Origin: Lytechinus pictus
Taxonomy: Eukaryota
NCBI RefSeq assembly: GCF_037042905.1
Contig: NC_087245.1
Span: 27,282,001 to 27,346,000 of the forward strand
DNA: 64,000 bases
Direction of reading: 5' to 3'
The notes under the pieces are model-generated. The model did no database searches. It was not told the DNA's origin and saw only the letters and a list, made by a program, of their open reading frames with translations. Shown piece by piece: positions 1 through 60,049 of this stretch (its first letter is position 1; each line of letters starts with the position of its first letter). Position numbers and translations under genes: made by a program.

Positions 1-199
1 TCAAAGTGTTCAATTTTTGGGATAGAATTTTGTAATTTCATTTATCAGGTAATAAAACTGAGTTTGGTAAATCTAAAAAAGGACACTAAAAATATGAACA
101 CTTGGAGATGCTCACTAAGATGAGGAAAAAACATGAAAGGAACTGGAACTTAAGTGGATGTTATAGCATGCCTTTTGAAGATCTCCAAGCACCTGGAAT

Positions 200-440
200 C
201 ATAGGCGGTGGAAGTGGGGGGGGGGGCGTATCCCACTAAATTTTAGGTGGGGAGGGGACGACCCCCCCCCCTCAATTTTTTGTTGATAACCTTTTTTTTT
301 TTTTTTTTTTGGCTTGTCAATTTTCACTTTTGTTTCCTGTGTCCCCCCCCCCCTAAGATTTTTGGTCACTATTTTTTTTTTTTTTTTGTCAAAAAGTTTT
401 GGCGGTTCCCCCCTAAAATTTTTGGCTTCCGCCGCCAATG
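200..440. mobile_element. hAT-like MITE (mirror copy at 5956-6197)
   Basis: TIRs cataggcggtggaag / cttccgccgccaatg; 8-bp near-TSD cctggaat / ccaggaat; poly-G/C subterminal runs. Confidence 0.75.
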
Positions 441-1180
441 CCAGGAATGATGATGTTCAACTGAGAGTCGCTGAAGTGGAACTTGTTGCAGAGAATGATT
501 ATTCCAGGACAAGTTAGATGATATTACCCAGCCCATACATCACAACAATGGAAGGGAGACAATATACCCCTGTACTACGTGAAGTATCATATTATCTTCA
601 GGTTGGTTTGGAAAGTAATAATAGTCCTCTAGTCAATATTAACGTCTGTCCAACATAATGGTACTATCGAGCAATTTGGGGGTTCAATCACAAACAGCAA
701 AAGTTTAGTAAATTGACACTAGTAAGATAATTAAACAAATATAATACAGCCAAACTGTCTGACCCCTTACTTGACTACTGACTTAACTACTTATTAAAAA
801 ATGACAAGTGATGCTTAGGCCCTTTGTAACCATTGTATTGGGCAGACTTTGAAGCAGATGACTAGAATTCATACTTTCATGAAGATGAAGGAAGATCAAA
901 AGAATTATTACAATTTAGCAAATATGAAATTAGAACACTGTCATGGTTATAAAAAATAATGAATTTCTATCCAGTAAAATGACAATACAATGTAAGAAAT
1001 AATTGCAATCAAGTAATTTCATTTGCAAAAGATATTTTCCATAATTTAATAACCAAATTTCTCAAGATAATATTCTTCTGCACAGAAGTGTATGACACGC
1101 TCAGTGTAAATCATGCTGTTTATAAATCTCTAGGAAACCTTTTTTTTCAAAATGAAAATACATGTAAACTTAATAAAAAC

Positions 1181-1390
1181 CAGGGGTGGATCCAGGATTT
1201 ATCCTGGGGGGGGGGGGGGCACATTTTCATGATGAAAATTTGTCAAGCAAAAAAAGGGCCTTGCTTTCCGGGGGGGGGGGGGGGGGCATACTTTGGTGAA
1301 AATGGCATATTTTCATTACAAATCTCGACTGAGGCTCTCTAAGGGGGGGCTGGGGTGAGCCAGATGTGCCCTCCCCCAGATCCACCAGTG
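1181..1390. mobile_element. hAT-like MITE (mirror copy at 5030-5225)
   Basis: TIRs caggggtggatcc / agatccaccagtg; 8-bp near-TSD ataaaaac / ataaaaat. Confidence 0.75.
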
Positions 1391-2319
1391 ATAAAAATCA
1401 ACATTTGTGAAAGATGGCATACGTACCTTATACTGAATTGGTAAATTCAATGCATATGTCTACAAAATGAAACTGACATGTTTGAATAAATTGCTTATTT
1501 TTGTTTCTAGAAAGAATTCATTAACAGCTTAGAGTTATTGAGAAAACATCAGGCAAACATAACATTCTGATATGCAATAACTAAATCTGTTTTAAATATG
1601 CTTTGTTTATGTCAAAGGCTTTATCGAAATAAGATTATGCTATAATTTATAAATTACTGCATTTTGGAGCCCATTATAATTCAAAATGAATCATATAGGG
1701 CAGTGCCACACCTTATTCACTAAAATAAAGGAGGGGTGCAGCTGAAAAATCTCATCAGCAGGGGCAATAATTTTCACCGCCATTTCAATAGTACTATTAG
1801 ATATCATGAAAACACATAATTAAAATAAAATTAACTTTCTCTCAGGAAGTGCCCCTGTATACTATTACAGCCCTTGACCAGTATATTCTCTCAAGAGGTT
1901 CAATAATTCCTTCCCTTCCCTTAATTGTAGAGTCGGTTCGGGTGCGAATGTGTCTGAAAAAAATGATAAGCCAAAAAAAAAAGATCATTAGTAAAAATTG
2001 TAGAGTGAACAGAACATATCATTAAAAAAAAATGACAAGCAAAAACAAAGATTGATCTGGCATTGGAAAATAAAAGGAAATTAATGAACACCACTTCAAC
2101 ATTTTTTGTTGTTTGCTTCTCCTGCTTACAACTTTATAACTTTACCTGATACACCATATATATGGACCTTTCAAAACTTTTGGCTCCATTATCATGACTT
2201 TGCCACTGTTCAAGTATTATTTATTTGAAACCAATGCTAAGACTATAAGGTGAAATGAAATTATATAAAGAAAAAAAAAAATTCACAAAGTATAAAATCA
2301 TAATGATGTAGGTCATGTT

Positions 2320-2790
2320 GAAATTAGACCCTGGACTGGACTCAAAATTAGATCAAGTGTAGTGTAGACCAAATGTAAATTACACAAAGTGTAGACCAAA
2401 TGGCAATTAAAAAAAATTAGACCAACTGGACATTTCGCAAAATGAGGATTAGACCAAGTGTAGACCAAATGGGTTTAGCCCATTTGGCATTAGACTAAAT
2501 GAGAAGTGGGCAAACTGCATGTAGACCAAACGAATATATACATATTTCACACTGTGGAACTGCATGATATAAAGCCAATTTTATGTACCGGTATTTGACA
2601 AAGTAAAAAAATTGTAATTATGTAGGTTATGCTGAAATTAGACCAACTGGACATTTCGCTAAATGAGAATTAGACCAAGTGTAGTGTAGACCAAATGGCA
2701 ATTCAGTAGACCAAATGGGTTTAGCCCATTTGGCATTAGACTAAATGACAAGTGGGCAAACTGCATGTAGACCAAATGAACATACACCAT
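2320..2790 (+). repeat. Degenerate tandem array of tagaccaaat(gg) units with ~220-bp higher-order duplication (mirror ~3525-4085)
   Basis: Many tagaccaaat/tagaccaagt units; aaattagaccaactggacatttcgc recurs at ~2415 and ~2635. Confidence 0.85.
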
Positions 2791-5029
2791 GTACACATAT
2801 TTCACACTTGGGACTGATAAAGAGAGCCGTAGCAGACGACGGAGATGCGTACATGATCTGCGTCCGCAAATAACGTGCACGCATGTATGTACTAACATGA
2901 AAAACAGCATATGGGACGATCTTACAAAAAATTGCACATGCGGGGCTATTGGAGAGTCACAGCAGATGACGGCTAGCAGACGCCGATGGGCGCGCGCATT
3001 TAGCGAGCACATCGTGATCGTTTTAACTATCGATAGTACGTACAGTGTATTAAAAAGGTACCGCGATGTCTATGGTAGGCAGGACAACAAGAATTTCAAA
3101 ATGTGTTTGTTGTCCCAAGAATGATATCAAAATATTCCTTAATATCTAATTTATCATGTGAAACCACTTAAAACTTACGTAAAATTCATTTAAACTGTAA
3201 AAAAAAACAAATTCATAGCACCAACATGGTCCGAAAAAGCCATAGACATCGCGGTACCTTTTTAATACACTGTTCGTACTATCGATAGTTAAAACGATCA
3301 CGATGTGCTCGCTAAATGCGCGCGCCCATCGGCGTCTGCTAGCCGTCATCTGCTGTGACTCTCCAATAGCCCCGCATGTGCAATTTTTTGTAAGATCGTC
3401 CCATATGCTGTTTTTCATGTTAGTACATACATGCGTGCACGTTATTTGCGGACGCAGATCATGTACGCATCTCCGTCGTCTGCTACGGCTCTCTTTATCA
3501 GTCCCAAGTGTGAAATATGTGTACATGGTGTATGTTCATTTGGTCTACATGCAGTTTGCCCACTTGTCATTTAGTCTAATGCCAAATGGGCTAAACCCAT
3601 TTGGTCTACTGAATTGCCATTTGGTCTACACTACACTTGGTCTAATTCTCATTTAGCGAAATGTCCAGTTGGTCTAATTTCAGCATAACCTACATAATTA
3701 CAATTTTTTTACTTTGTCAAATACCGGTACATAAAATTGGCTTTATATCATGCAGTTCCACAGTGTGAAATATGTATATATTCGTTTGGTCTACATGCAG
3801 TTTGCCCACTTCTCATTTAGTCTAATGCCAAATGGGCTAAACCCATTTGGTCTACACTTGGTCTAATCCTCATTTTGCGAAATGTCCAGTTGGTCTAATT
3901 TCAGCATGACCTACTTAATTATATTTTTTTTACTTATATATATTTTTTTAGTCTTTATACCAAATGGGCTTGACCATTTGGTCTATAAATTTTTTTTAAT
4001 TGCCATTTGGTCTACACTTTGTGTAATTTACATTTGGTCTACACTACACTTGATCTAATTTTGAGTCCAGTCCAGGGTCTAATTTCAACATGACCTACAT
4101 CATTATGATTTTATACTTTGTGAAATTTTTTTTTTTCTTTATATAATTTCATTTCACCTTATAGTCTTAGCATTGGTTTCAAATAAATAATACTTGGACA
4201 GTGGCAAAGTCATGATAATGGAGCCAAAAGTTTTGAAAGGTCCATATATATGGTGTATCAGGTAAAGTTATAAAGTTGTAAGCAGGAGAAGCAAACAACA
4301 AAAAATGTTGAAGCGGGGGGGGGGCGGTGTTCATTAATTTCCTTTTATTTTCCAATGCCAGATCAATCTTTGTTTTTGCTTGTCATTTTTTTTTAATGAT
4401 ATGTTCTGTTCACTCTACAATTTTTACTAATGATCTTTTTTTTTGGCTTATCATTTTTTTCAGACACATTCGCACCCGAACCGACTCTACAATTAAGGGA
4501 AGAGAAGGAATTATTGAACCTCTTGAGAGAATATACTGGTCAAGGGCTGTAATAGTATACAGGGGCACTTCCTGAGAGAAAGTTAATTTTATTTTAATTA
4601 TGTGTTTTCAGGATTTCTAATAGTACTATTGAAATGGCGGTGAAAATTATTGCCCCTGCTGATGAGATTTTTCAGCTGCACCCTTCCTTTATTTTAGTGA
4701 ATAAGGTGTGGCACTACCCTATATGATTCATTTTGAATTTTAATGGGCTCCAAAATGCAGTAATTTATAAATTATAGCATAATCTTATTTCGATAAAGCC
4801 TTTGACATAAACAAAGCATATTTAAAACAGATTTAGTTATTGCATATCAGAATGTTATGTTTGCCTGATGTTTACTCAATAACTCTAAGCTGTTATTAAT
4901 GAATTCTTTCTAGAAACAAAAATAAGCAATTTATTCAAACATGTCAGTTTCATTTTGTAGACATATGCATTGAATTTACCAATTCAGTATAAGGTACGTA
5001 TGCCATCTTTCACAAATGTTGATTTTTAT

Positions 5030-5225
5030 CACTGGTGGATCTGGGGGAGGGCACATCTGGCTCACCCCCCCCCCCTTAGAGAGCCTCAGTCGAGATTTGT
5101 AATGAAAATATGCCATTTTCACCAAAGTATGCCCCCCCCCGGAAAGCAAGGCCCTTTTTTTGCTTGACAAATTTTCATCATGAAAATGTGCCCCCCCCCC
5201 AGGATAAATCCCGGATCCACCCCTG
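5030..5225. mobile_element. hAT-like MITE, mirror of 1181-1390
   Basis: cactggtggatct ... ggatccacccctg with the same flanks reverse-complemented. Confidence 0.75.
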
Positions 5226-5955
5226 GTTTTCATTAAGTTTACATGTATTTTCATTTTGAAAAAAAAGGTTTCCTAGAGATTTATAAACAGCATGATTTAC
5301 ACTGAGCGTGTCATACACTTCTGTGCAGAAGAATATTATCTTGAGAAATTTGGTTATTAAATTATGGAAAATATCTTTTGCAAATGAAATTACTTGATTG
5401 CAATTATTTCTTACATTGTATTGTCATTTTACTTGATAGAAATTCATTATTTTTTATAACCATGACAGTGTTCTAATTTCATATTTGCTAAATTGTAATA
5501 ATTCTTTTGATCTTCATGAAAGTATGAATTCTAGTCATCTGCTTCAAAGTCTGCCCAATACAATGGTTACAAAGGGCCTAAGCATCACTTGTCATTTTTT
5601 AATAAGTAGTTAAGTCAGTAGTCAAGTAAGGGGTCAGACAGTTTGGCTGTATTATATTTGTTTAATTATCTTACTAGTGTCAATTTACTAAACTTTTGCT
5701 GTTTGTGATTGAACCCCCAAATTGCTCGATAGTACCATTATGTTGGACAGACGTTAATATTGACTAGAGGACTATTATTACTTTCCAAACCAACCTGAAG
5801 ATAATATGATACTTCACGTAGTACAGGGGTATATTGTCTCCCTTCCATTGTTGTGATGTATGGGCTGGGTAATATCATCTAACTTGTCCTGGAATAATCA
5901 TTCTCTGCAACAAGTTCCACTTCAGCGACTCTCAGTTGAACATCATCATTCCTGG

Positions 5956-6197
5956 CATTGGCGGCGGAAGCCAAAAATTTTAGGGGGGAACCGCCAAAAC
6001 TTTTTGACAAAAAAAAAAAAAAAATAGTGACCAAAAATCTTAGGGGGGGGGGGACACAGGAAACAAAAGTGAAAATTGACAAGCCAAAAAAAAAAAAAAA
6101 AAAAGGTTATCAACAAAAAATTGAGGGGGGGGGGTCGTCCCCTCCCCACCTAAAATTTAGTGGGATACGCCCCCCCCCCCCACTTCCACCGCCTATG
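5956..6197. mobile_element. hAT-like MITE, mirror of 200-440
   Basis: cattggcggcggaag ... cttccaccgcctatg, flanked by attcctgg / attccagg. Confidence 0.75.
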
Positions 6198-7419
6198 ATT
6201 CCAGGTGCTTGGAGATCTTCGAAAGGCATGCTATAACATCCACTTAAGTTCCAGTTCCTTTCATGTTTTTTCCTCATCTTAGTGAGCATCTCCAAGTGTT
6301 CATATTTTTAGTGTCCTTTTTTAGATTTACCAAACTCAGTTTTATTACCTGATAAATGAAATTATAAAATTCTATCCCAAAAATTGAACACTTTGATCAA
6401 ATTTGGTTACTTAAACTTAATGTTAAATAAACTGAAAATATGTAATAAAAGGCAAAATAATGATAATGATGAAAAAAATACCGGTAATAAAAACAAAAGT
6501 TACTCAAATTCACTCAAAACCATACACTTATCTACTCTCCTCAAAAATCAGTTCTCACTTTTAGGTATTGATCATTCATTCAGTCAATTAAATAATAAAA
6601 AGAGACAGGAGATCCTCATCAAAATAAACACAAACACAGTGTCTCACACACACACTACACATTAATAGTAAAATCAGTTTGTATCTTTCGTGGGATTTGT
6701 TTTTATGTAAATCTGGATTCTTCTTGGTAGTAGGGCCTTAGGTCGCTCTGACTTGAACTTGAAACTTCCAATCTCAAGAAGGCAAGATATATCTCGGGAG
6801 ATAGTCATCATCAAGATGTTTAGGAGTTCAACCTGGTGGTGAGGTTATTCATGATGGCATCTGGTATTCTGGCAGAAAGAATCAGAAATATAAAATGCAT
6901 AAATACAATTGTTTATTTTTTTCAATACAAATTAAATTACCTGAGTCATTCAAGATAGTGGGTATTTTTTTTTGGGGGGGGGGGGTGATGGCATGACAAG
7001 TTTTTAGTCAAAAGTATTTTTATCTTCATTTATCTTTTTTTTCCCACTTTGTATTACCATTTATTCAAAAATTGCAATAAACATATCAATAAATGAGTTT
7101 TTAATCTAGTTGGCAAAAGAAAAACCAGTGCAAAAGTAAAGCCAGTATTGGCAGTAAAACACTGACACCACGGCACTGACACTGACAGTGAATGTTCATT
7201 TTCCAGTGCATGCACATCACTGCCCCATCATCTTCACTCGTTTTCAGAAAATATTTAGTTATTTCTCAAATATGACCATGATTATCTTATTCATGTCATT
7301 ACTCTGGTGTTTATTCATGATTTTAAATTCAGGAAATCATTCAGCAAACGAAGAAAACAAAGCATTTCTTGACTGTGATTCCGTGTGATTCAAGTTCAAT
7401 TTCATTTCTGTGTGTATCA

Positions 7420-8180
7420 CAGGTACGCACGTACGTGACGTAATCTTAATCTCTATTATGATGTAAATTAATCATCCCGCGCGCGATTAAAATGGCTCGA
7501 AATTCGACCAAATTCAAGGGCAGCTCAGCTTGCAAACCTCACTGAGAAGGGCTTCCCCAGCCCTTGCGATTCCCCGCGCTGCAATTTCACTGCAATACAC
7601 AGAAAGGAAATCAACTCAAGTTTCACAATCAACGGAAAATCCGGAACCCTTCGAGACCCATTTTACAAGAAATACAACTAAATAAGGTAAGAATTGAAAG
7701 CAACTCAAGACATTTTCGACTTACCGACACTTTCATGTTTATTTTCGGAAGATTTCATGGAATTTGGGGCACGAAAATGACATCGGTAGCTCGCGAAAGT
7801 CCTGTGCAATATGATGACATATTTTTCATCGCACGGGAGGACAAGCACAAAGAGAAAATATCATGTTCATCCGCGATAACAGGGGCTTAATTTTGACGAT
7901 ATCGCATCGCTATGCGATTGCAATGATTGACATGCGAACGAAGCTTGCGTACAAATTTTGAGCACTTCCGCGACAGCGCCATCTAGTGACTACGGCCGTG
8001 CCTAGTCATGGCATGGGATAAAACTTCATTTCTGACATTACTACGCTCTCGTTGTTATTTTGAAACAAGAATTCATAAAAAAAATGAGAAAAATATTGTG
8101 AAAAGACGGAAGAGACTTGCCCGATGTTTACGCCGCCATCTTGTTTCTTAATCTTATTGTACTTCCCCAACGTTACGGAG
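7420..8180. promoter_or_regulatory. CpG-enriched, probably bidirectional promoter region upstream of SEC61B
   Basis: CpG density clearly above flanks; ETS-like cacttccg (7963-7970), CTCF-like cagcgccatctagtg (7974-7988), YY1-like cgccgccatcttg (8131-8143); splice donors on both strands (aag/gtaaga 7686+, tcg/gtaagt 7725-). Confidence 0.5.
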
Positions 8181-9951
8181 TCAAGATTTTAGCATGAAAT
8201 TTATACATAAATACCAGGGAATTGAATGATATCAAGATCTGTTTGAACAAAATAGAAAACAATAATAAGTCTTTGTTCACATAAATTAATTCATGGTTCA
8301 GTTTAGGCCTACTGCATATCAATAAATACATTTTTAAAAATCAAACTGCATCTTGTTTCACGTGTAATTATTTCATCGTTCTCATACATGAACAATCATT
8401 TCTATTGTCCTTTAAAACAGTATTATCAAAATAAAAAAAATTGAATTGTTATCAAAATTATGATTATAATTCGCAGTCTGTGTGAACTGATCAAATAATA
8501 AGGAGAGATCATATATCTGTCACTCCTTTTAGTTGAAATTAGTCATAACTTTCTTTGACTTTATCAGTTTGATGTTTAGCTTTGCACACACTGATTTAAA
8601 TAATTTTGCTTATCTCGCATATATACATGATTCAATTTAATTATAACAAAGGCAAAGTTTATCTGCATTTGTTTATAATTCTATTTATAAACAGTAACAA
8701 CTGATGACTACGGGTTAATGATAATTCCTTTTGCCAGCAACGAAATATACATTTTGCATCTATAAATGTAAAGCAATTATCAAATACTTTTCTTAACATA
8801 AAACAATGAAAGTAAACTTTCATTGGAATGTTAACAACTCAAAATTTCCCCCAAATTGCGAAGGCTGACACAAGCATCCGAATCCTAAACCTTTCAAAAT
8901 TGAGTGCGATACGTCAACGTTGTACCAATGCACAGAGAACTGCGCTTAGCGTACTTAATTTGCATAGCAAATAAACATGTTTAATCTTATACGGTATCCT
9001 AAATCAATGATGGGAAATAAATTCAAATAAGTGATTAAATGTTTCCAATATTGGTATTAAACTTTAAGCAATCTTTTCGCTGGGCGAAACAATAGTCACT
9101 AGATAAGATGAAAATGTTCTTTGAAATTCCATTTCTACCCTCATTCTCAACGTACATTTTCATTATTTTTCATGTGAGTGTGGTAATATCATTTAATTTG
9201 TATATAAGAATAGGAAGGCCTTTCATTACTGTTGAGTGTTCAAAAAAGGAAATTGAATTTTCACATGACATAACTTGTACATGTGCTTGTATTTTTAATA
9301 ATGAAAAGGTTCGCGCCTACAACCACAAAACAACACAGACACGAGGGCTGCTCAGGTTTCTTGTTTTCTTTAATTCGGTGTTGCCAAAAAACAAAACAGC
9401 TACGGTCAGAACACTAATTCATAATTTTCTTCAGCATCTTCAGCTACTGTATAATGAACATAAACATTATACTCAATGGAAGGGAAGTCCTTGCAGAAGT
9501 CTTCTAGTCCTACACTTCAGATTCAAACCTCTGCAGGCATCCTTCTCTAACAACATACGGTCTCATGAATACGCTGTTGATACTAGTGTCATGAGTCACT
9601 GGGCACTCTCCCTAGCTAATAACAAAATAAGTGCAATGGTGCACATCCAGATTCCAAGTACAAAGCAATCCCTAAAGGGGGTACCTGAATTAAGCATTAG
9701 TGATACCCCTAAAAAGGCCGGAAATAATTGACCATTGAACAAAGAGGAGGAAGCAGAGTTTCTAAACAATTGGCTAAGGGCAGAGAGGGAAAAGAGTACT
9801 AAGACAAAGTTTGCAAGTAGAGACGGAGACATAAGCATACACCATCTATAGACATACGTATGAAATGTAAATGCAAATACAACAGGTATACATTTAAATG
9901 GAATTAAATATTTAAAAATTGCTTTATTTTAACTAGATAACTAGATAAAAT

Positions 9952-11779
<1,828 letters not shown>

Positions 11780-12496
11780 AATGGACTCTCCCACATTTAA
11801 ATGGATCTCATAGCTGTATGGAGAGGGATGGATTGCAAGAACTGTTGAAAGCAGGGGGAATGCATGTGCTGAGGGACAGGATACTCCACCTTAATTCTGA
11901 ATCATGTGTGAAAATAGGCCATGATGGGTTAACCCATCGATGGTCGAGGAGAAAGTCCTCAGAAAGGTCACAAATTGTTTTATCAGCCAGTCACCTAATG
12001 TCCCATCTTCAAACGCCCAGAATTTCCGAGGGATCTTACAAAAAATAAATTCTCTGCCAATTGCCGTGTAACTTCTACATTTTCTTCCTCCTATCGATTC
12101 TAATCATGGTGGAGACCGATAGCAATTTCAGCAAAAAATGTGTATTTTGTCCTGTTTGCTTAATAATTTTGATGCATGTATTCCTGTGGATTTTAAAGAA
12201 CTAAGTTCCATCTCAAACATCTATACAAATTTATCTGTTTTTTCTCTTTCTTTTAGTATATATTTTTGATGTAATTAGTTTCATTGCTGGATAGATAATG
12301 TGGCATGTTTCTAATTTATTTTCTCCACACTCTTGCATTGTCTGATTTTGTATACCGGTAGACCGTGTCAGTTCATACATTCCCTAAGAGTAACAATTGA
12401 TCATTATTGTAGGTATAGGTAAAACTTATTTTATTCATTGTAGTGTAGAGCTGTTTGAAAAAGTAATTTGTTGATGGATTTTGGATTTTAAAGATT

Positions 12497-12502
12497 AATA
12501 AA
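12497..12502 (+). terminator. Candidate SEC61B polyadenylation signal AATAAA
   Basis: AATAAA after a T-rich 3'UTR-like stretch, followed by GT/T-rich sequence. Confidence 0.45.
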
Positions 12503-15069
12503 ATATCTGTGTAAGTTGTCTTCTACATCTACGTGTGTAAAGGTTACATTTTATTGATGTCTTATTTCTTCTGGTTGTTTCCATTCTGTAATTGTTTTCA
12601 TGATTGAATCCTTGAGTGCACTGAGTGTTGCTGAGAAAGTGGTTACTTGTGCTATAAAAGGATGTACAATATTAGTTCCGCTTTGTATCCTCTGCCAAAA
12701 AGCGCTGTATAAATCCAGTAATTATTATTATTACTTTGTACTTACCGTACACTGCAGATGCAGGATAATGATAAAACTAAGACATGTTGCCTGCTAACTT
12801 TATTACATGGTAAAAAAATTCTTCATACTTATAATTTATTATTTTAATTACTCTCCTAAATTTACTTTTGAATTTTCCTTCATAAGTAAGAAAAGAAGAG
12901 TTTTTGTCAACCCAAGCAAGAAGATTTGCATTATTAATTGGGAAAACTTGTAATTATTCAAATCATTTTATTACATGTATGTGAAATGAATTATGTTATG
13001 GTACCTTAAAAAAACCATGAATCTTATTTTCAGGGGGTTATTGATTCTTTGACCAAGTTTAATTATGTGCTTGACAGGACAAATGGGTAAGGATTCATGT
13101 CTTTCAATAGCAATGATGTATTGAGTCCATTTTGAAGGAGCTAGATATGACAGACTGAATAAAATGTATCAAAAAGTTGTGAGCGAGCAAGCAAAAATTT
13201 CCACTTTTTTATTAAAATATCACATTGGGTGATAGATTTTGACATATTCAGAAAACACATCATAGTTCATTTTCTATCGTTCCCTTTATTTCCTTTCCAC
13301 TTCTTTTTTTCTTCTTTTTTATTGAAGGGGGGGGGGGGGCACCCCGAGCCCCCGCCCATCTGCATGCCACTGTTCAAAGGCACCATAACCTTTGTAGCAC
13401 ACAATGAAAGGATTTGAAAAAAATACATGCTCTCCCATACTTCGGTTGAAAATTTTTTGTTTTTGCTTAGAAGGAATATTCAAAGCTAAAAGAGAACATA
13501 TTAAAAAGTAACAGGAACAGAACAATTCAAGCAAATAAACAAATTTGAAAATGAATTTTGACCCCATAATTCGAAAATTATGGCAAAGATAATGAAAAGG
13601 TTGAGAGGAAGTCTGCTGATTAGCAAGAAGTCCGATAATCATATTTATCATTTTATGCCATTTTGGCGCAAGCCTCCTTTTTAACCCCAGACAAAAACAT
13701 TCCGTGTCCGCTCAAGCATGAACAAAACTAATTTTTTTGTAGTGGCATTTGAAAGATAAGACTTCAGAGCACCTATAACACTAAAATATAGACATCATAA
13801 TTAGTAACAAAAATTTTATAGACTTCAAATCTGTCCCTTTTTTTATACGCACTATATAGTGCAGTTAGATGCTGTTACATGTACCAAGAAAAAAAAATTG
13901 AATACATTTATCTCAGAAGTTGTTTCTGTCCGCTCAAATCTTCTTGGGATGATGTAAATTGTGACAGTCTGGGGAGTGATTCATGAAGAGTTTTGTCGGG
14001 GATTTTCACTGACTTATTTGGTCTCGGCCAATCGGATGCAAGGATTTCTAGTAGCTTATAACATCTGCCAGTCAAGGCCACTGACAACAATCTACATGAA
14101 ATGCTCCCTAGTTCAAACAGAAAATGTAGGTGTTTTTTTTTATTGACACTAAATGCTACATATATATGATTACAATATATTTCAAAGACAAAACAAACTT
14201 CACTGATTCTCAAATGTTTAGTAAATACTTTGTTTTATTAAGATAATATCTTTATATTACACTTTTGACCATATACTATTTGTCATATAGTTTAAAAACA
14301 ATATATTCTACTTTCTACAGCATTATTAGTGTACTGCCCCTTTAAGCTTTCATGTTTCTCATAATTCAAATGTCTTTGAAATCCCCATTGAAATAAATAT
14401 CATGACTTAGTTTCAAAATAATTACACAACATTAGTAAAATTTCAGAAAATAATACCAATATCACAATAAGAGTATCTGCATGTTTAAAATTATCTCATG
14501 GGTAACTAATTCCTCCCCTTATAAGATAAAAGACAATAAAGCAAAATCAAATACAGAATTGAAAATTAAAACTAGATGTAACAGTGTAATCAGTTTTGAG
14601 TAAAATTGTGCTTTAGTTTTCCAGTATCCACTGTATATTGAAATAAACTCACCTAATAATCAAACATAAATTACAAAATAATGTTTTTTTTTTATAAAAA
14701 GGTTTTAAATATCAACATATCTATGAATGTAATTTCAACGATAAAATTTTACACTGAGATACCCTGTTAAGATCCGAATTACTCACATAGTTAGAATAAT
14801 GACATCACTACTAAGCATAAATTGATCTCACAATTAGCTTTCATAACACCCTTGCAGCAGATAACTAACTTCCTTCTTGTACTGCACTACAATCATACAT
14901 GTATGATAGACAATCTCTCGATATCAAACCAAATTGATCAACTCATTAATCTCAATTCCCATAGGATTAAGTACATTCATTTCATTGGCAGATCTAGACT
15001 GCGCCTTATGGATGCACGTCTGTATATATATTTTGAGAATCGCCAATTTTGCATCATTGTATACATATA

Positions 15070-17393: not shown

Positions 17394-17977
17394 TTAAAGG
17401 GATGGTCCAGGCGGGAAATATTTATATCTCAATAAATAGAGTAAAATTCACAGAGCAAAATGCTGAAAATTTAATCAAAATCGGATAACAAAGTTATTGA
17501 ATTTTAAAGATTTGCATTATTCCGGTGAATCAGTTCTAGGCATGTCATATGAATATTCATTAGGTGGGCTGACGTCATATCCCCACTTGTTATTTTGTAT
17601 TTTATTATACGAAATTAGGTTTATTCAAAAAATTTCTACCAAGAACTAAAACAATTGGATTGACAACTGATTAAGTGCATTAGTTATTTATTGCCACAAC
17701 TTACTTCATCATAATGGGGACACATCATTTACACATGTATGAAACATGATTTCATGTAATAACATAAGAAAAAGGAAAGTGGAGATGTGACATCATCAGC
17801 CCACCTAATGAATATTCATGACAATGTGCATATAACCTTTTTCACAAAATATTGATTTAAAATTCAATAACTTCTTTATTTATTATCTGATTTTGATGAA
17901 ATTTTCAGCATTTTGCTCTGTAAATTTTACTGTATTTATTTAGATATAAATATTTTCAGCCCGGACCATCCCTTTAA
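17394..17977. mobile_element. Kolobok-like non-autonomous element (TTAA target)
   Basis: ttaaagggatggtcc ... ggaccatccctttaa with long imperfect TIRs; same family at 37903 and 42457. Confidence 0.8.
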
Positions 17978-24923: not shown

Positions 24924-27900
24924 CTAAAGAAAAGAAAAAAAAAGATTCTATGAATTAGCCTTAAAATGCATTCAATTATTAACTTTATGCTAAATTCTTG
25001 TCAGAAAATTTAAGTAATATTTTTTGTCAAAGGTTATTAGTGCTGTGGTCGATAGGCCTCATATCGACATTGAGGTCGACATTCGAAGGATTTTCAATGA
25101 TTCCGACATGTCGACATGCATGCACCCACATCGACATGTAAACAAAAAAATAAAAAGGGGTCTATCCTAAACCTCACGAGTGTAAAGCTTACCTGAAAAG
25201 TTCAACATTAATTGGCGCGATTAAAAGCTTTATTCAGCTTAGCAGCGCATTAAAATAAGTGCGAGCTCGCCGAGCTGCGCGGCAGCAGAAATACGTCAGT
25301 GAGGGGCCAGCTTGCCCTAGTCGAACCCCCCTGATCCCGACGATCGCTCTAGACCTAGCTCTATGCATGCACGCGCACGTACCCATCCACGGAATTTTTT
25401 ATTGTCAATCTGAGGAGCTTGCGTTTGCAGCACATGTGTACCAGCGTATAATACGCAGTGATCACTGTTGTAATTAGTGATTCTCAAATTGGCTCCGAGT
25501 GTTATTGCGCAATGCTTTCGAGACCGGATTGTGGTACAAAAACTTGATTCTCCAGAAAAAATGTGGATTAAATCAGTGATTTTGGAAGTGAATTCACTCT
25601 AGCTTAGTGAAAATATGTTTTCTCGAACTGAGCCTGTATTATATAGATCTAGATCTAGTGTGAGGATATCACTCGTGTCAAGGTGAACACATTTGATTGA
25701 GAGTGTTATGTGCCGCAATCGAATGATTTTTTTTATGTTAGGGAGCATAGGCTGAATTACGGTCCCTTTTTCATGTCGACATTGTCGATGTCGGGATTAA
25801 TTTTTAAGCGTCATGTCGACATGGATTTTTGTTCCCGACAACAGCACTAAAGGTTATAGACCCCATCAGAGTCATGCATTTCTGCTTTTATAGTTACAGA
25901 GCTACATGTAAATTGTTCTTATAATTGATAAACTCAAATCATCATCAATTTAATTTTGGAATTTAACCATAAAGCAGAATTATGGCATGATTTTAGTGGC
26001 CATGATATCATCCCCTCTTCCCGAAGTTCCTCCAGTTAGAATTTATCTTTCTCTGAACAACTTATTGTTCATGTACCTATGTGCTTCGGTGCTTGTCTTT
26101 CACAGCACTTCTACAAATTCACCATCATTATCATTTTTCTGCTCTTGTGATAGAGTGTTTCATATCTAACGCTACGTACCTGTAGAAACTCGGTGAGTTC
26201 CACCCTGCCGTTCTTATTGCAATCCACTTCATTCATCATACTGCGTAGTTGATCTTCAGTCAAATCATCTCCAACACTCTGTCATAATACAGCAAAGGAA
26301 CCATCAATGAATAAAGAAATGTACATAAACACCAAGTGACAGAATAATCAACCTTTTGTATATTTCATCCCAGGGGAGTGTTTCATCAACATTTATGTCT
26401 GACAAGTTCTCAGATCTAACAACTTTCCTTGATTTTGATTGGCTGAGAAACCCTGTAACTATAGTAACTGTCGGATAAAACATATCTTGTCAGATAAAAA
26501 GCCGACAAGTCATTTCATGAAACGCTCCCCAGGTTTACTAAAAAAACAAACCCAACTTTACCACCATTTTGTCCATTGAGTAATGGGTCCTTTTATCCGA
26601 CTGACCGTATGCTGATCCCTATATACCCTCTTCAAACTCTGTTTGGTGGGGGTATTAATATAACAGATAACAGCTAAAACAATTTGGGTGTAGTACTATA
26701 CATGCTTATCTGTGTGCAGAACATGTGACTTCCAAAAGAATTGAGTCAATTAGTATTCACTTTGGTGATTCCATTTACGTACAGCAAACACCAATTCTTT
26801 GTTGCTTTATAAACAGCCTTTTTCAATCTACACCAAAAAATGATCAGTATATGGGCTCAGTTGAAAAGCTAATTGTACTTGTAATTGCACATGAAAGATG
26901 ACCAGTTACCTTTAAGAATTGTCTCATGTCATTAGGAGTAATGTATCCTTTCTTCTCTTTGTCCAACATCTGGAAACGCTTGGTGTATTTCTCCTTCTCT
27001 CCCTCTGTGAAGTTGATAGGTACAGTCATGAGCTCAGCTCGGCAATTGTATCCCATCTCCTCATTCAGAAATTTCCGTCCATTGGCAAGCTCCAGCTGTA
27101 GAACATAAAACAAAGGAAAACATTGTAGCATCTTACTTAATCTTAATACTGAAAGGCTTCAAGCATTTTACAAAGGGTTAAGTGTCATGGTGTAGCAGTT
27201 CTGACTCTCGCCTTGATATCAAAGGGTCATGACCATTGACTGGGTAATAATAATTACAATGTAAGGTGGTTAGAAACACAAAGTATTAAATGCTATATAA
27301 ATATAACAATTATTATTATCTATTATTATCAAGCCTGATTTGTTTATGTGCCAACGCACACAAGAATATTGATTGGTATCCTGAAGAGTATGTCTATTGA
27401 GCATAATCTGACTAAAGTGGTGATTGGTTTTACACCAAACACCTGTAGGTAAAAAAAAAGTGTAATTTCAAGAAAGTTGTGTGTTCGAATCCCACCACTG
27501 TCTGGCGTCCTTTTGCAAGGCGTTAATCCACACTTTGCCACTCTCGACCCAGGTGCTAAATGGGTACCCGGATGTGAAAGTCATTGTAGCTTGTCCAGTA
27601 CTGTGTGCGCCTCACAAGCGACTGACTGGAATATTCCCCAGGGAGTGGAGGATGTGCACACATAGTGTGCGGGAATGACTGAGGTAATGATACATCTGTA
27701 GAGCGCTTAGACACATCGTTCTGATATATCAAGCACTATATAAAAGTGGATAATTATTATTATTATTAAATCTGTGAAGCACCACTAGGTGCAAAAGACA
27801 CACCCAACACTAAGCAGCATTTCTAGCATTCAGGCAACCCTCCCCCCAAAAAATAGACACCCCCCAAATTATAAAAAGTCAACCATTGGGTTCTCCTTTT

Positions 27901-30900
27901 CAGGAGGATATCCAAAGCAACTGTTAGCTTACCTCTTGTCTAGTCTTATTCCAGCCGAGTTGTTTGGCCATGATCTCTACGATCCTTGGTAGGGCTTCTT
28001 CAGCTGCTTGAACATTGAGAAAGGCAAGACGGGTTCTCCTAGCCAACACATCCACTGCTGTACAGGCATATTCCTTCACTGCATATACCACCTGCAGTAG
28101 ATATGTTTGGTTTAATAGTGATACTGTGTCATTTAATACGGCATTACTATAATCCTAAACATATATATGTACTTCTACCTGTATCGGGATAACTAAATTC
28201 TATTGAAATAATAACAATTAAAAGCATTCCTAAGGAGACCCCCAAATAGTTTCTGTCTTTAACTTGTCCTTATCTGGATTGATAAAACTATTATTTATAA
28301 CACCATGCAAAACACTTGGTGTAATAGCTCAGTCACTAGAGCGGTGGATTCGCAAACCAGTAACCTAGGTTCAATTTCCCACTTGGTGTGCTAGTTAATT
28401 TTTGTATGGCAGTTACAAGTCCCCAGAGAGGACCTTAAGCCAACGGTCCTCTGGTTGCTTTCTTACAAGCATTCATGCTTTCTTAGCAATCAGGTAAAAC
28501 ATCACCATATAACCATTTACAAAATAGTTCCATTATTGAATGGAGGAGTGGCTTTTATGGTAAAGCCTTACCTCTGCTTCAATGTAAGGGAAATCTTCGA
28601 CCAGCCTCCTTCCTACAACGGGCCATCTCTTGCCCGTCAAGCTAGCCATTCGGGCTACCTCTACAGCCTTGTCTCCATAGGTATTAGACAAATGCTGGGC
28701 AACCTGTCAAAGAGATTATAATGCATGTGTTTCATTGAATTATTAGCCAGAGTAACTTTTGCTCACCTCGGTTTCGTTTCTTCTATAGTTTATGAATCAT
28801 CATGATATACACAGAATTCTTTGAGATATATTGACTATGTATTATTACTTTGATCATATTTTGTGAGCAGAAAAAAAAGAATAAAATTTGACTTCTAAAT
28901 CTTACTATATGGGGAAGATTAACTCATAAATGTGTAATACAACTCTATTAAATACAAATATCAACAGATTAATGATAAGAAAATTAACATTCAAATATTA
29001 AAAATTATTTTCGGAACAGTATTCTTCAGGTCTACCTTATCTGCATTGTGTACCCAACAAATCTTATCAACTAACTTTATCATTTGTTATAAATATATTA
29101 TATAACATGATTCAATTAGATATAACATGATAATAAAAATGCTTTAGCTACCACCTGTCCAAAAAGATCATATCTGTTGTTTCCCCTATTATTGGATCAT
29201 GTACAACAGAACCTGGTCACAAAGACCACTTGGTCAGAAAGACCGAATTCTCCCACATTCCTTGAATGCTTTTTGTGCACTGGTTTTATTTTAAACATAC
29301 ACAGTTCTTGCAAAGTGAACATCACAAATGATATAAATGCCTAAATGGGCACCTGTCTCACCTCATTTTCAAGACCAAAATCTTGAATGAGTCTGATGAA
29401 CATGGTGGGTGTCCAGCCGTGGGCGCCCTCTAACAGTAAACCATCGGTCAGTGAATTATGCCTTGGTTCTAGACCACATGCCTCCACTGCAGCATCAACA
29501 GCATCCACTGCCATGCTACGGTATGTCGTCCATTTACCACCTGAATAAATAGAATGGGAATATGAAGTATTGTCTTGTTGATAGCATCCACTGCTGCACT
29601 TGCACATTTTGTGCCTTTGGAGTGTGTTAAACATTTCACATTAGAGGAAGTAAACTTTGTGACAAAAACAGGATTAGGGATCTCACCAGAAAATATAAGC
29701 AAAATCTTTCTTGCAGGAACCCTCCAAGCATCTTTACATTAGTATATGCAGGCTATTACATTCATGTGGGATAGCTCCATTAATAAATGGATACAATAAA
29801 TGTAAAATACCAGTTTGTATAACATACAACACAACTAATGTAGGTTACCTACTTCTGTAAGACACGGTGGGCATTTCATAAAGTTGTTTGTAAGTTACAA
29901 GTGACTTTACAAACAACTGGTGATACTGTCTTAGGAGATAACTCCACACCAAATAAAATTTGGGTGCACATAATTTACATCAAGAAAGGATCACCAGGCG
30001 TTCATAGAGTCACATGTCACTTACAGACAGCTTTATGAAACACCCACATGCGGTTCTGGAAGCTAAGAGAACATTGCAAAACGTCTCTTTCTTACCTGCA
30101 ATTGTGATGAGTTTGTTATGAGAGACATCGATGACATGATTCCTTGAGATAGATTCGGTGTTCTTAGAGTTGGGGTCTGTCACTAAAGGTCTGATCCCAC
30201 TCCATGCTGCCATCACATCTCCTCTTCTTACTGCAGAAATCAAAGATAAATGAATGTAGTTGCAGTAAACACTGATTCAGGGTTCCTAGCTTTTCAAGAA
30301 ACAAAATTCCCTGATTTTTCCCTTATGAAGTTTAAAAATTCCCTGATAATTATTCAAACCTATTCCCAGTCTCGCATGTTTTTTAAGTTGTTGCAGTGAA
30401 TAACATGTACAGTATTTTCAGTATAAAAACAATAATGTAAAACTAATTAGTACCGCCATAACCAGTCATTCAATAGATTTTGTTTTGATATGCAGCAAAA
30501 TATAACAAAGTCTGACTGACTACCATGCTTTTGACTTTTCCCTGATATTTCCATCATTTGAGGCATTTTCCCCTGATTTGAGGTATTAAAAAAAATCAAA
30601 TTCCCTGATTTTTCTCTGACTGGAAAAAAGTAATATAATTTTCACAGAATTCCCTGATGGGCTTAAAACCCTGCTAATTTCATGACAAAGTCTGTAAATC
30701 CAAGGTTGATAATCAATATATCTTTGTAGATCTAGATCTGGTACAGTTACATAAACTGAACTTTGTGAAATCAAGAAATGTAAGCTGACAAAGAATCACA
30801 CTTCCCACACAGATAAGCACATATTGGGCAGTGTCTTGATATTGCTTGGAATGGTCCAATGGCAATATTAATCTCACCTGTGACATCTTTACTGAGGTAG

Positions 30901-33900
30901 TCTTTGATTTCTTTCAAGATGAATTGGATATCTGCTTCTGACGGTGAGGGATTATGGGTCACTTCACAAGGTCTATCTGTTGTCCCGGCAAGGGTAAATT
31001 TCTCCCAGGGAAGAAAGAAAATAACACGACCATCGCTGGTAGAGGGGTCCAACAAACCCATGGCTTCAGGACTAAACAAAGCAACAAGAACATACAACCA
31101 TCAGAGAAGATCAATGAATATTCAAACCTCAATGAGACAGATTAACCCTAATAAGACCCATGGCTTGAGGACTAGTAAAAAGAATCAAGAAAATCCAACA
31201 ACCAGAGAACAGCAATAAATGTTAAAATGACAATTAGATTAAGAGATGTTTGATAAAACAAGAACAAATTTGTGCATGTCTCTATATACATCAGACAAGA
31301 GAAATTGGACTCATGGAGGGCAAATGTTGCTTTAAAAACTTATCAATTGACTCATGATGGGGGAAAAAATGTTGCTAAAGGGAAATTTTCAATGAGTTCA
31401 TGGAGGGTAATTGTTGCTAAAAGGAACTTGTCAATGGATCTTTTGAGTTCGTCTAACTCATTTGATTGATAACAGCAACAATATCAGCAAAATAAAAATA
31501 TTGAAATGCAATGATGCATTCTACAAGCAACTGTCATATTCAGCATTTTTTTTTTTTTTTTTGGGGGGGGGGGGGTAAACTTGAGTCACATATGATAAAT
31601 AAAATAAGTCAAAAACATACTTCAAATATGAACAAGTGTAATGATCATAAAGCATAGCAATAATATTTAAAAAAATAATAATTACTGATTAAAGCACATT
31701 ATTTCCAATTAAGATTTGATTATAAATTTTGGTTTGATTTTAGTTTATATTATTGCAATACCCTACCTGTAATAATCTGGTAGTACTATATGAACTCCTG
31801 AGCTTGGCTGACAAATCTTCTTGCTTTCTGGAACTGCCATTTGTCTAATGCTGTCTGTAAATGGTCCAGTAGCATTGACCACACACTTGGCCAGGACACT
31901 GTATTCTTTACCTATAAAACAACCAGCAAGATATAAACCAATTCAATTTAAACTCATGACTTTATAATTACAATTGTAATCATTTGAATAAATCAACAAG
32001 CATAATCAACAAAAATCCAGAGTTCTTAGAAAAGCTAGAATAATGAGTGCCTTATTTATGATAAACTATAGACCTGATGCCATTATCATTGTATGATTTG
32101 TAGAGGAAATGAATTAAGGCTCACAAAAGATGTATTGCCAAGCACTGTGTAGTTATTGATCATGTAATTCTTTAAATCAGGCCAGATTTTTTTAAACAGA
32201 AAGTTCTGCCTCATTGAAAACATAGTACACTTGAAAACATAAACAATAACGCTGCATTTGAAAAGACCAACATTAACACTGTACATTGAAAAAAATCAAC
32301 AATAAACTGCACTTGAAATCACCAACATTAACACTACACTTAAAAGCACCAACATTGATACTGCACTTGAAATCGCCAACATTAACACTGCACTTGAAAA
32401 CTTCAACAAATGACACTGCACTTGAAAACATCAACATTAACACTGCACTTGAAAGCACTTCAGTGTCTACTAGAATGACACAACCGAGTCTATCCCTCAC
32501 CTGAGATTCTATCCCTTAGTCTTGCCCCTCTAACCTCCTCCTCGCCTACATCATTCTCAAACTTGATCAGATCAAGGACCTCTGTATGGTTAGCCAATGT
32601 GGCCCCCATCCTGGCTGCTGTTAGTGCTAAAGCTATATTCATTCTAGAATCATTGTGTTGACCTGAAATGATCAATAATAAACAATGATACATTACATCA
32701 TCATACTGTCAAATAAAAATATCCATACGATCAAAATTATGTATTCATACTTTTGAAGATGCATTGAGATTTTAAAAGGATTAGTCCTCCATAACTTGTT
32801 AAAGCCCATCTTCTTTAAGGACTCTTTTATGTCTCTTTTACTGAAATCCTAATCCTAATGTAATGACATTAGTTGTGTACATGTATGTAACTAATGTCTG
32901 TTATATTGACAATCTGCTTATCCTGTTACTAATGTTTTTAAAAATACCATGTACAAATGTTTGTGAACGAAAGAAAATGTATTATAAACTATGAATATGA
33001 ACTCAGACCTTACTAATGGCCAGGTGCCTTTAAAATGAAACAGGTTGAAGATAATGTAAAATTAAAAAATAAATAAATGCACCTATCAGACTCAGGGTAG
33101 GAATAACTAAAGAGTATTTCGAATTCTGATACCACAAGTTCTTTCTAATATAACTTGTCACCACTATACATCAAACCATGCAGTAATATAAATGGTTTCC
33201 TCTACAAAAATGACAGAAAAACATCTTCAGATGGGATTAATACCTTATTAAAACGTAAATATACCTATATATAAAATCTATGCTTCAAAGATGTGAATGT
33301 TATATTTTCACGGCTATGCCTTCGTAGGCAATCTTGTATTTCAGAAAGATTTTAAAAAGTAATACTATCATCCTTTATGCTTCAAATCGCAAGAAGAAAT
33401 GCTTTTACAATATCTCTGAAAAAAAGGAAGAAAATTAAAAAGTATAAAATTATTCTAAAATTGACTCTCACCATCATAATAGACAATAGCACCGACTAAT
33501 TTGTTTCGTTTCAGCATGGGAAACCTCTCTAATGCTCTTTCCTTGGAGAGGAAGTAGCTAGCCCTCAAGTTTTGTCTTCCAGCTACCAGATCATATGCTT
33601 TGATACCAGCCCAGTAGTACGGCAGCTGCCATAGTCTGTGTGAAAGTAACAGTCACGCAAAATAAACAGCATACTAAAAAATTACACATGCCTGAATGAA
33701 AATAATTCAAAAATTGCTAGTAGTTCTTATGATTCTTCTTACAAGATATATACAAGCACAATTTAAATTGAACTTACATTCTAGTCATTTACTGATATTT
33801 CATACAGTTGATAACATCAAACAAATGTAAATTCATGAGATAGTACATGTATGTACATTATTTCAGAAAATTTCATAGTCGTTGAATGATTTAAGAAAAA

Positions 33901-47584: not shown

Positions 47585-48179
47585 TTAAAGGAGAATGAAA
47601 CCCTTGAAACCAGCTGAATCCATATCAAAGAGAAAAATCAAAGAAACATATTGTTGAAAGTTTGAGGAAGATTGAATGAATAATAAGAAAGTTATGAGCA
47701 TTTGAATGTCGAGATCACTAATGCCATGTAGATCCTCCCATTGGCAATGCGACCAAGATCTGTGATGTCACACACGTACAACTCCCTCATTACTTTAGTA
47801 CTTATTTCACTTCATATTCTCACTTTTATAAAGTCTATCACAAGTTGAGGTGTTCTCTTTATGAGAGGACAAGTACAGAGGTTTCACAACATTATATCAT
47901 TGATGAATCGTTTGTCATATGATTAGAATGAGCAAAAAGAGATGTTTTGGGGTATATTTTCAGTGTCCAAAAGGGGAGAGTTGTTCATCTGTGACATCAT
48001 AGATCTTGGTCGCATTGCCAATGGGAGGATCTCCATAGCATTAGTGATCTCGACATTCAAATGCTCATAACTCTTCTATTGCTAGTCCTATTTTACTCAA
48101 ACTCTTGTTGATCTTATTTTTTGATTTTTCTGCCGTTTCACAAAAGCTAACTTGCTCCAAGAGTTTCATTCTCCTTTAA
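47585..48179. mobile_element. Kolobok-like element, second family, with ~80-bp near-perfect internal IR
   Basis: ttaaaggagaatgaaac ... gtttcattctcctttaa; gttatgagcatttgaatgtcgagatcactaatg...tgatgtcaca mirrored at ~47990-48072. Confidence 0.8.
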
Positions 48180-48846
48180 AGTTTGGAAATCAGCTGTTGA
48201 AAGCAGAAGAAGGGGTACAAATTTCGTTTTTCTTGCCGGTTTCGGAACTCCTCTGCCTCAGCGGGAGGGTGTACGTGCACCCGAGTGCACCCCCAGCCTA
48301 CGCCCTTGAAAAAATAAAAATCACCGTTCTTCATGGTGCCATGAGCCTAATTACAGCAGGAGGGCTAAAGATATTCGTTCGACCCAACCCATATGCATTC
48401 GAATTTTTTCAATTTGATGTTGCTGATTGAAAAAAATGTATGAATATGATTAAAAATCTAACACTGATTCTAGAAATGGTAACTACTGAACTTCCTTCGC
48501 CCAAATTGGGAAGATAAATAAGTGACTTGGAACTATTTTTTGACTGGCGGACTAATTAGGGCTATTTTACTGTTTCAGTTGATAAATTTGATCCATTCAT
48601 AGTTATCTTCATAAATGGCGATTTATTTTTAAAATGAGCTGGCTACGGTACCCTTTCCTGGTCAGATATGGAATGTCAGATATATATCCTATCCAATGGT
48701 AGTAAACATTCCACCCTCTAATTTCACATTTATTTTTTTGTGAATTTTTAAAAAGTGCCATTTTAACACACAAGTCTATGGGGAATGTTTTACGCGCGTG
48801 AGACCTCATGCTAATGCTGACTTAAAATGGTCACAAGATGACGCTA

Positions 48847-49450
48847 TTCAAAGGACAAGTCCACCCCAACAAAAAGTTGACTTGAATGAAAAGAGAAAAA
48901 TGCAACAAGCATAACGCTGAAAATATTTATCAAATTCGGATGTAAAATAAGAAAGAAAATTTTAAGTTTCGCTTAATTTCACAAAACAGTTATATTTACA
49001 TCCTGGTCGGTGTACAAATGAGGGTACTGATGACATCACTCACTCACTATTTCTTTTGTATTTTATATGAAATATTCCATTCTCCCCACTGTCCTGTGAA
49101 ACAAAGTTTTATTCCTCCCTAAACATGTGGTATTACCATTGTTTTTTTATTTCATGGTTCAGTCAAGTTGGTTCTTATTGTCAAATCTATAAAAAGAAAT
49201 GAAATATCGTATAATTCAAACACTAAAAAACAAAAGAGATAGTGTATGAGAGACGTCATCGACTCTCTCATTCATGTCACTGAGTTCTGCATACTGACTA
49301 TTTTGTGAAAAATAAGCGAAACTTTAATAAATTGTCGGAACTTTTTTTATTTCACATCCGATATTGATGAAGTTTTCAGCGTTATGTTTGTTTGAGTTTT
49401 CTCTATTGATTAAAAAATTAACATTTTCTGGGGGTGAACTTGACCTTTAA
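48847..49450. mobile_element. Kolobok-like element, third family
   Basis: aaggacaagtccacccc ... ggggtgaacttgacctttaa; inverted sister copy at 59468-60049. Confidence 0.75.
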
Positions 49451-59467: not shown

Positions 59468-60049
59468 TTAAAGGTCAAGTCCACCCCAGGTAAATGCTGA
59501 CTTGAATAAATAGAGAAAAATCAAATTAGCATATAGTGCTCAAAATTTCATCAAATCGGATATAAAATAAGAAAGTTATGACATTTTAAAAATTTGCTTA
59601 TTTGTCACAAAAAATGATATGCACAACTTGGTGAGTTAGTCGATGATGTCCATCACTCACTATTTCTTTTGTTTTTTATTGTTTGAATTATACAATATTT
59701 CATTTTTTACAGACATGAATGAATCATATATCATTAAACAATGCTAATTCCACATGTTCAGGGAGGAATTAATCGTTGTATCACTTGACAATGAGGAGAA
59801 AATCAGACTATTTCGTATTTCATATAATAAAATACAAAAGAAATAGTGAGTGGATGACGTCATCAGTCTCCTCATTTGCATACCGACGAGGATGTGAATA
59901 TAACTGTTTTGTGAAATTAAGCAAAGCTTTAAAATGTCGTAACTTTCTTATTTTACATCCGATTTTGATGAAATTTTTTGTGTCATGCTTGTTGGATTTT
60001 CCTCTTTTTATTCAAATCAACTTTTTGTTGGGGTGGACTTGTCCTTTAA
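59468..60049. mobile_element. Kolobok-like element (family of 48847-49450)
   Basis: ttaaaggtcaagtccacccc ... ggggtggacttgtcctttaa. Confidence 0.8.

Follow-up and report, generated by a model that had tools for sequence, protein, structure and literature searches.

Two inverted copies of a high-copy 4.9-kb repeat as the probable basis of a long palindrome in Lytechinus pictus

The subject of this analysis is a window of 64,000 nucleotides of AT-rich animal DNA from Lytechinus pictus (assembly GCF_037042905.1, contig NC_087245.1, positions 27,282,001 to 27,346,000 of the forward strand), at whose left edge lies a long palindrome. Its arms are very probably two copies of one repeat, joined at a terminus of the element, and the short stretch between them is the tip of the complete right-hand copy. 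The repeat belongs to a high-copy, DNA-transposon-like family, and in this assembly the pair lies within a Sec61-beta-like gene. A striking palindrome with a "unique" spacer may thus consist of two repeat copies, the spacer being a transposon end, which calls for caution in the reading of single windows.

The palindrome and the 4.9-kb repeat family

Global alignment of the left arm (1-3075) with the reverse complement of the right arm (3240-6396) gave 3,035 matches, 15 substitutions and 10 indels around an inter-arm spacer of 164 bp (3076-3239). This bears out the initial annotation of the window, made from its sequence alone, which had described a palindrome of at least 6.4 kb with arms of ~3.1 kb. 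The mirror match was also correctly traced there to the window edge: it reaches position 1, far beyond chance, and the left-arm copy, if of full length, would end near position -1607. An extra ~90 bp and a G-run insertion reported for the right arm are likewise present, as 91 bp at 3902-3992 and as an 11-bp G-rich insertion at 4317-4327. An indel given as 9 bp (885 versus 5512) exists, but is 10 bp long and lies at 881/5515. The arm differences, whose substitutions had been described as scattered, are in fact clustered: 21 of the 25 fall within 881-2414 (P ~0.007), only 4 occur in the ~1,540 bp outside this segment, and two tracts of 665 and 627 bp are free of them (P ~0.0006). As the arms carry these 25 differences, a single fold-back read is excluded as their source, in agreement with the earlier reasoning.

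The identity of the arms emerges from public sequencing runs. Four of the 23 listed runs (X1, X9, X10 and X21), one from each of four studies, aligned to 3030-13000. X10 is a DNA run with a second species label, and is ~6% different in unique intron sequence (55 substitutions in 947 positions). Its summed contig depth, which is not equivalent to copy number, has a median of 12,194 over the 15 bins of 3030-8024 versus 44 over seven flank bins (9357-10355 and 11022-12353), a ratio of 277. Eight bins were left out of this ratio, namely those containing other repeats (8025-8357, 10356-11021 and 12354-13000) and those at 8358-9356, with a depth of 120-327. The spacer, called unique in the initial annotation, is unique inside the window only: it lies within the high-depth zone, with a depth of 10,067 at position 3113, like the arms. 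At least seven X9 contigs lie on 4057-7779 at a depth of 3-6, with a depth of 0 in the seven flank bins; this run is nearly empty on the spacer (0.15 in the first bin).

The limits of the repeat are given by X1, in which at least six contigs span 3076 to 8004. The first begins at 3076 with one unaligned base, and the sixth departs from the window sequence after 8004, its remaining 144 letters representing a different flank. Both limits coincide with mirror 6-mers, TAGGCA at 3076 and TGCCTA at 8004, and 3076-8004 is therefore one repeat of 4,929 bp. Its terminal inverted repeats are very short, with 6 bp perfect and 8 matches over the first 10. The X10 depth ratio, together with the other flank in the sixth X1 contig, indicates many near-identical dispersed copies. 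We accordingly describe the family as non-autonomous and DNA-transposon-like, with TAGGCA...TGCCTA ends; these data define the ends of an apparently active 4.9-kb family common to at least two labelled species.

Searches for a coding remnant recovered no Pfam family across six read-through frames of the element. A 70-residue exon-like stretch had no protein match among 25 candidates, a weak test covering one frame and part of the element, and a 374-residue frame, with the same coverage, had none among 1.84 billion representatives. A likeness of one motif to a transposase family was dropped after the protein searches gave no hits. Metagenome scans using both termini yielded no further copies with flanks. 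A tandem array unit was also considered and rejected, as no head-to-tail joint occurs among the 15 joints listed out of 62.

The junction and its possible origins

The joint between the arm copy and the complete copy, at 3075|3076, is blunt and coincides with the element's first base, with central asymmetry and no untemplated bases. The 8-mer preceding it, GTCTATGG, matches GTCATGG, the 7-mer directly beyond the other end of the element, with one bulge. Such a match occurs at a frequency of 5e-4 of background positions, a P value that is generous because the match was noticed after looking. Across ~9,840 element positions, 3 match GTCATGG equally well and 9 more do so with one mismatch; of the 3 best, the junction site lies closest to the left end. 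The simplest reading would be that GTCATGG is a 7-bp target-site duplication, the left copy of which recombined with an internal look-alike. Short homology between the parental sites would be significant only if the right-flank 7-mer also stood to the left of 3076.

We tentatively favor an origin in which two copies inserted head to head into a single target site and the center was later trimmed by a microhomology-mediated deletion, although we would give this account somewhat less than an even chance. The first insertion would have generated a 7-bp target-site duplication, here GTCATGG. Insertion of a second, reversed copy into this target would then have produced an almost perfect ~9.9-kb palindrome whose center held only the 7-bp target. 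Finally, the central target copy and the internal GTCTATGG of the left copy would have served as short direct repeats for a deletion that removed the target and 164 bp, converting an unstable center into a more stable, asymmetric one. Passages of PMC4689423 describe a comparable event in yeast inverted amplicons, in which part of one arm is proposed to be deleted, from a short repeat where the inversion begins to a copy of it farther out.

A slight tilt toward double insertion comes from arm divergence. The arms differ by substitution at 0.49% (15/3,050), which is as between independent family members: the right copy differs from X1 contigs at 0.57% (26/4,528) and from X9 contigs at 0.48% (13/2,729). 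At position 4684 the left-arm allele is present in X21, X1 and X10 and the right-arm allele in X9. Where other samples cover position 4716 and the 10-bp indel, they carry the left-arm state.

Several observations weigh against the double insertion. The flanks match at only 4 of 7 positions without a gap, as opposed to 7 of 8 with one, and the left flank is rearranged; the target-site duplication is therefore not directly shown. Same-site inverted insertion is rare, though known for Drosophila P elements. The difference-free tracts of 665 and 627 bp require gene conversion or locally low family diversity (X9 contigs, too, carry no substitutions over 5435-5987), and the clustering of differences fits fold-back synthesis with one conversion tract equally well. 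The two-allele argument draws on a single site, 4684, and the X9 contig there could be an allele of this very locus. Protein searches found no transposase in the element, so that we infer cut-and-paste mobility from the ends and copy number. The 3075|3076 joint is not among the 15 joints listed out of 62 in the four runs, an absence that fits a private allele as well as a mis-join. Finally, an X1 contig runs unbroken over 3239|3240 and has no left-arm sequence before 3076. The palindrome is therefore not the usual form of the family in the X1 sample.

Fold-back synthesis from a single copy is rather unlikely on balance, even though it yields the exact joint observed. Here a 3' end that had just copied the left end and the 7-bp target would fold onto the internal 8-mer 164 bases away, pairing over 7 bp with a single bulge (-4.5 kcal/mol for the duplex), re-copy the element in reverse and then switch back to the flank, for example during sister-chromatid gap repair following excision or at a stalled fork. 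Fold-back junctions with central asymmetry, 3- and 15-bp microhomology and no untemplated bases appear in passages of PMC3834830. Fold-back seeds of 5-9 bp are described for yeast in parts of PMC7999016, but these had spacers of 3-12 bp rather than 164. Arms made in this way would have started out identical, but their present divergence equals that from copies in other samples, and each of the two alleles at 4684 is found elsewhere; one conversion tract from another copy could nonetheless explain the cluster at 881-2414. An intact chromosome would further require a second template switch.

Unlikely, too, is an assembly artefact, in which two haplotypes of one insertion, or two loci, were joined via a chimeric fold-back molecule. 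The alternatives posed in the initial annotation, a real inverted duplication or a haplotype mis-join, thus hold to the extent that mis-assembly retains some weight; the arms themselves are copies of a high-copy element rather than ordinary duplicated DNA. The arm difference of 0.5% suits two alleles, high-copy repeats are prone to assembler error, and the left flank lies outside the window. The missing joint in the four runs would be expected of an artefact, but those runs probably come from other individuals and contigs lose rare variants, which makes its absence weak evidence. The window holds no N gap. Moreover, the joint coincides with the element's first base and with the best match to GTCATGG in its vicinity, a position that a random chimera would seldom hit and that speaks for a biological event, although a polymerase-made chimera in an amplified library could exploit the same microhomology.

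The blunt joint exactly at the terminus would also be explained by transposase strand transfer, with a sister or resident copy receiving the left end at an internal site, as in sister-chromatid, hybrid-element or nested "double Ds" events, but we consider this quite improbable. Sister-chromatid transposition gives inverted duplications that end at the transposon end (PMC3239180, in part), and single piggyBac ends are able to attack their own element according to passages of PMC3952818; the same passages state that Sleeping Beauty seldom targets sites near its own ends. An internal site resembling the right end of the element (3243-3256, 10 of 14 bases) begins 3 bp away from the position mirroring the joint, and equally high scores occur at 3 of 9,832 internal positions. 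Nested insertion predicts an inverted copy of the 164 bp past 8004, and none is present in 8005-10145 (best local score 23 versus a mean of 23.3 for shuffled sequences). In the hybrid-element version, the 7/8 match to the right flank would be a matter of chance or of target preference.

A Crypton-like origin, in which a tyrosine recombinase would have crossed a terminus with an internal sequence mirroring the circle junction and the 164-bp spacer would be a terminal hairpin, draws on a partial internal likeness to the joined ends and on the short terminal direct repeats of Cryptons (PMC3212892, in part), but is highly implausible and already largely refuted: both strands of 3076-3262 fail to fold into a long hairpin (z -0.61 and -1.15, with all long-range pairs at 0.05 or below), 2-4% of sliding windows attain as high an internal likeness, and neither the six-frame Pfam scan nor the protein searches found a recombinase remnant.

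Host gene, possible consequences and related systems

The exons of the Sec61-beta-like gene to the right of the palindrome (Table 1) are linked by exon-exon joints seen in 161 and 151 RNA reads, and 135 reads join an upstream exon at 10145. The 25-base end of this exon is absent from both strands of the window even when up to 3 mismatches are allowed. The exon thus lies outside the window, which places exon 1 further left and the whole palindrome in intron 1 in this assembly. As the domain is split, the Sec61_beta match stays under the gathering score. Intron 2 contains a very abundant small element with inverted ends (10434-10706), which shows opposite-strand joints in all four runs.

The initial annotation had proposed hairpin or cruciform formation, arm-to-arm gene conversion and long double-stranded RNA as consequences of such a structure. 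In eukaryotic cells a 52-bp spacer abolished frequent fork stalling, and a Ty pair with a 280-bp spacer was stable in wild-type yeast, according to parts of PMC7999016. With 164 bp between the arms, cruciform extrusion and routine fork stalling are therefore unlikely. Conversion between the arms is possible, as is a duplex of at least 3 kb in the pre-mRNA, given the position in an intron. Intronic reads in X21 are near zero, and the X21 animals may be without the insertion. The pair itself is without a function of its own; it is likely to cause mild fragility and possibly a multi-kilobase duplex in the host pre-mRNA.

The singed-weak double P element similarly comprises two inverted copies of one element, whose junction carries an element end; unlike a double insertion of that type, the present pair has no intact central target copy. 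The same arrangement characterizes the double Ds and sister-chromatid products of Ac/Ds (PMC3239180, in part), but there is no remnant of the 164-bp end past the far terminus here, unlike in nested double Ds. The yeast fragile site FS2, with two inverted 6-kb Ty elements around a 280-bp spacer (PMC7999016, in part), also comprises two inverted multi-kilobase copies of one mobile element separated by at most a few hundred bases. It differs in that the spacer here is the tip of one copy, the elements resemble DNA transposons and any fragility is putative. The junction resembles the deletions at ODIRA/SUL1 junctions and fold-back fusions (PMC4689423 and PMC3834830, both in part) in its central asymmetry, short homology and lack of added bases, but its homology is a putative target-site duplication and what has been duplicated is the transposon. 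Both inverted doubles of one element and microhomology junctions are already known, and what is fresh would be the target-site duplication as a seed. If the junction is real, it may document to the base how a target-site duplication can seed an inverted double, from which foldback elements might arise, and would offer a natural test allele for the effect of a multi-kilobase intronic duplex on a housekeeping pre-mRNA.

Foldback elements such as FB and the sea-urchin TU elements have multi-kilobase inverted arms, internal sub-repeats and no coding sequence. The pair shares these properties with them and with Galileo, which also makes 7-bp target duplications (PMC4168063, in part). Unlike in such elements, the ordinary form of the present family is a single 4.9-kb unit with 6-bp inverted ends. 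As the X1 contig, which represents one sample and a data type that loses rare variants, has the left end without a mirror arm, the long arms are a property of this locus. There is a slim chance that the pair is a foldback transposon at birth, in which the target-site duplication provided the microhomology fixing two copies head to head. The resulting unit would measure 9.7 kb, with arms of 4.8 kb and a right-hand terminus on either side, and could move as one piece. This would offer a route from ordinary short-ended elements to giant palindromic ones, and would place a multi-kilobase RNA duplex inside an intron of a housekeeping gene.

The ends of the element appear to fit known superfamilies only in part. 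hAT elements have YA...TR termini, as this element does, and 5-8 bp target duplications, a range that would include the putative 7 bp here. Their terminal consensus is YARNG; the element ends read TAGGC, the fifth base C being against that consensus. No hAT transposase or remnant was found, with 0 Pfam families in six frames and 0 protein hits for one frame covering part of the element. With IS3EU/GingerRoot the element shares TA...TA termini; the 6-bp target duplications of IS3EU (PMC10045372, in part) correspond to a match of 2/6 here, where the left flank is not original. The 3-4 or 9-10 bp duplications of Academ correspond to matches of 0/3, 1/4, 1/9 and 1/10, with the same proviso about the left flank. 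The superfamily list used for these comparisons comes from parts of PMC5753468.

Features of the element and of the wider window

Table 1. Features of the palindrome, the repeat element and the adjoining host gene (window coordinates)
Feature	Positions	Strand	Evidence and remarks
Left arm, inverted second element copy without terminal 164 bp	1..3075	-	Arm alignment; runs off the window
MITE (miniature inverted-repeat transposable element) 1 inside element	200..440	.	8-bp near-duplication of target (192-199, 441-448; 7/8); mirror 5956-6197
MITE 2 inside element	1181..1390	.	8-bp near-duplication of target (1173-1180, 1391-1398; 7/8); mirror 5030-5225
Junction 8-mer GTCTATGG	3068..3075	+	Mirror of 3240-3247; matches 7-mer 8005-8011 with one extra base
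Complete high-copy element, 4,929 bp	3076..8004	+	X1 contig ends, X10 depth; without detected coding sequence
"Spacer", first 164 bp of complete element	3076..3239	+	Arm alignment, run depth
Left terminal inverted repeat TAGGCA; 8/10 first bases match other end	3076..3081	+	
Perfect 9-bp stem with 16-nt loop just inside left end	3082..3115	.	z ~-2; weak
Right arm, as far as mirror is visible in window	3240..6396	+	Arm alignment
Degenerate sub-repeats with TAGACCAA core	3499..4143	.	Mirror 2264-2816
Right terminal inverted repeat (TGCCTA on +)	7999..8004	-	Runs, end comparison
GTCATGG, putative 7-bp target-site duplication	8005..8011	+	Deduced; left copy not directly visible
Separate, more abundant repeat adjoining element	8012..8300	.	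X9 depth; right limit approximate
Host gene exon 2, Sec61-beta-like	10146..10246	+	RNA reads
Host gene exon 3	10849..10944	+	RNA reads; Pfam Sec61_beta E 7.5e-05, below gathering score
Host gene last exon, coding end and 3' UTR (untranslated region)	11692..12718	+	RNA reads

Both arms do contain the same two MITEs with the same flanking 8-mers, as the initial annotation recorded. Its conclusion that the arm duplication post-dates the MITE insertions does not follow, since both MITEs also occur in contigs of other samples. X1 records 3 and 4, X9 record 20 and X10 record 11 enter or cross them, and loose contig or read ends fall at 5956, the mirror of MITE 1, in X21 and X1. As both MITEs thus belong to the family in the same context, they provide no dating of the locus. 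The homopolymers of MITE 1 (262-387, mirror 6009-6134; C10, T19, C11 and T16) are identical in both arms, and the G runs of MITE 2 differ between arms by 4 and 8 bases. The identity in MITE 1 would reflect either recent conversion or consensus polishing across the arms. The 91-bp arm difference is one additional sub-repeat unit with the TAGACCAA core.

A scan for RNA families gave 2 chance matches only, both on the poly-T MITE. Across most of the element, minus-strand RNA in X21 is thin, at a depth of ~1-2 reads in 6% of the run, and any copy may be its source. Potential editing sites in X21 number 36 for A>G versus 18 for T>C; this excess is no evidence of editing, because the DNA run X10 gives 41 versus 30. 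Plus-strand RNA is present at 7359-7691 in the CpG-rich right end of the element (X21 depth 26) and stops at 7686, at a donor-like AG|GTAAG that also marks the end of an X1 contig; the segment is a possible outward-facing first exon. Further right, 16 bp inside the right end, 7976-7988 carries a putative CTCF-like motif, which would spread with every copy.

Beyond the element, X9 depth rises to 105-115 at 8040 and 8077 versus 3-6 on the element, with a loose end at 8012. The sequence CTAG|T at 8002-8006 had suggested a Helitron, an idea we rejected: the nearby hairpin is no better than in shuffled sequences (z -0.73), and an X1 contig departs from the window sequence at 8004.

Elsewhere in the window, exons with the Pfam domains DAO, DAO_C and EF-hand occupy 26847-31100 on the minus strand, in a gene that presumably encodes a mitochondrial glycerol-3-phosphate dehydrogenase-like protein. 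An older inverted pair (50847-51889 and 52580-54311) shows ~70% identity over 396 and 637 bp, with inner arms of 59 bp lying 690 bp apart. Several MITE-like elements with inverted ends are present (17394-17977, 47585-48179, 48844-49450 and 59468-60053), two of which are ~76% identical over 627 bp. Simple repeats include a 27-bp tandem array of 8.5 copies at 32228-32458 and an ATC microsatellite of 92 copies at 60321-60596.

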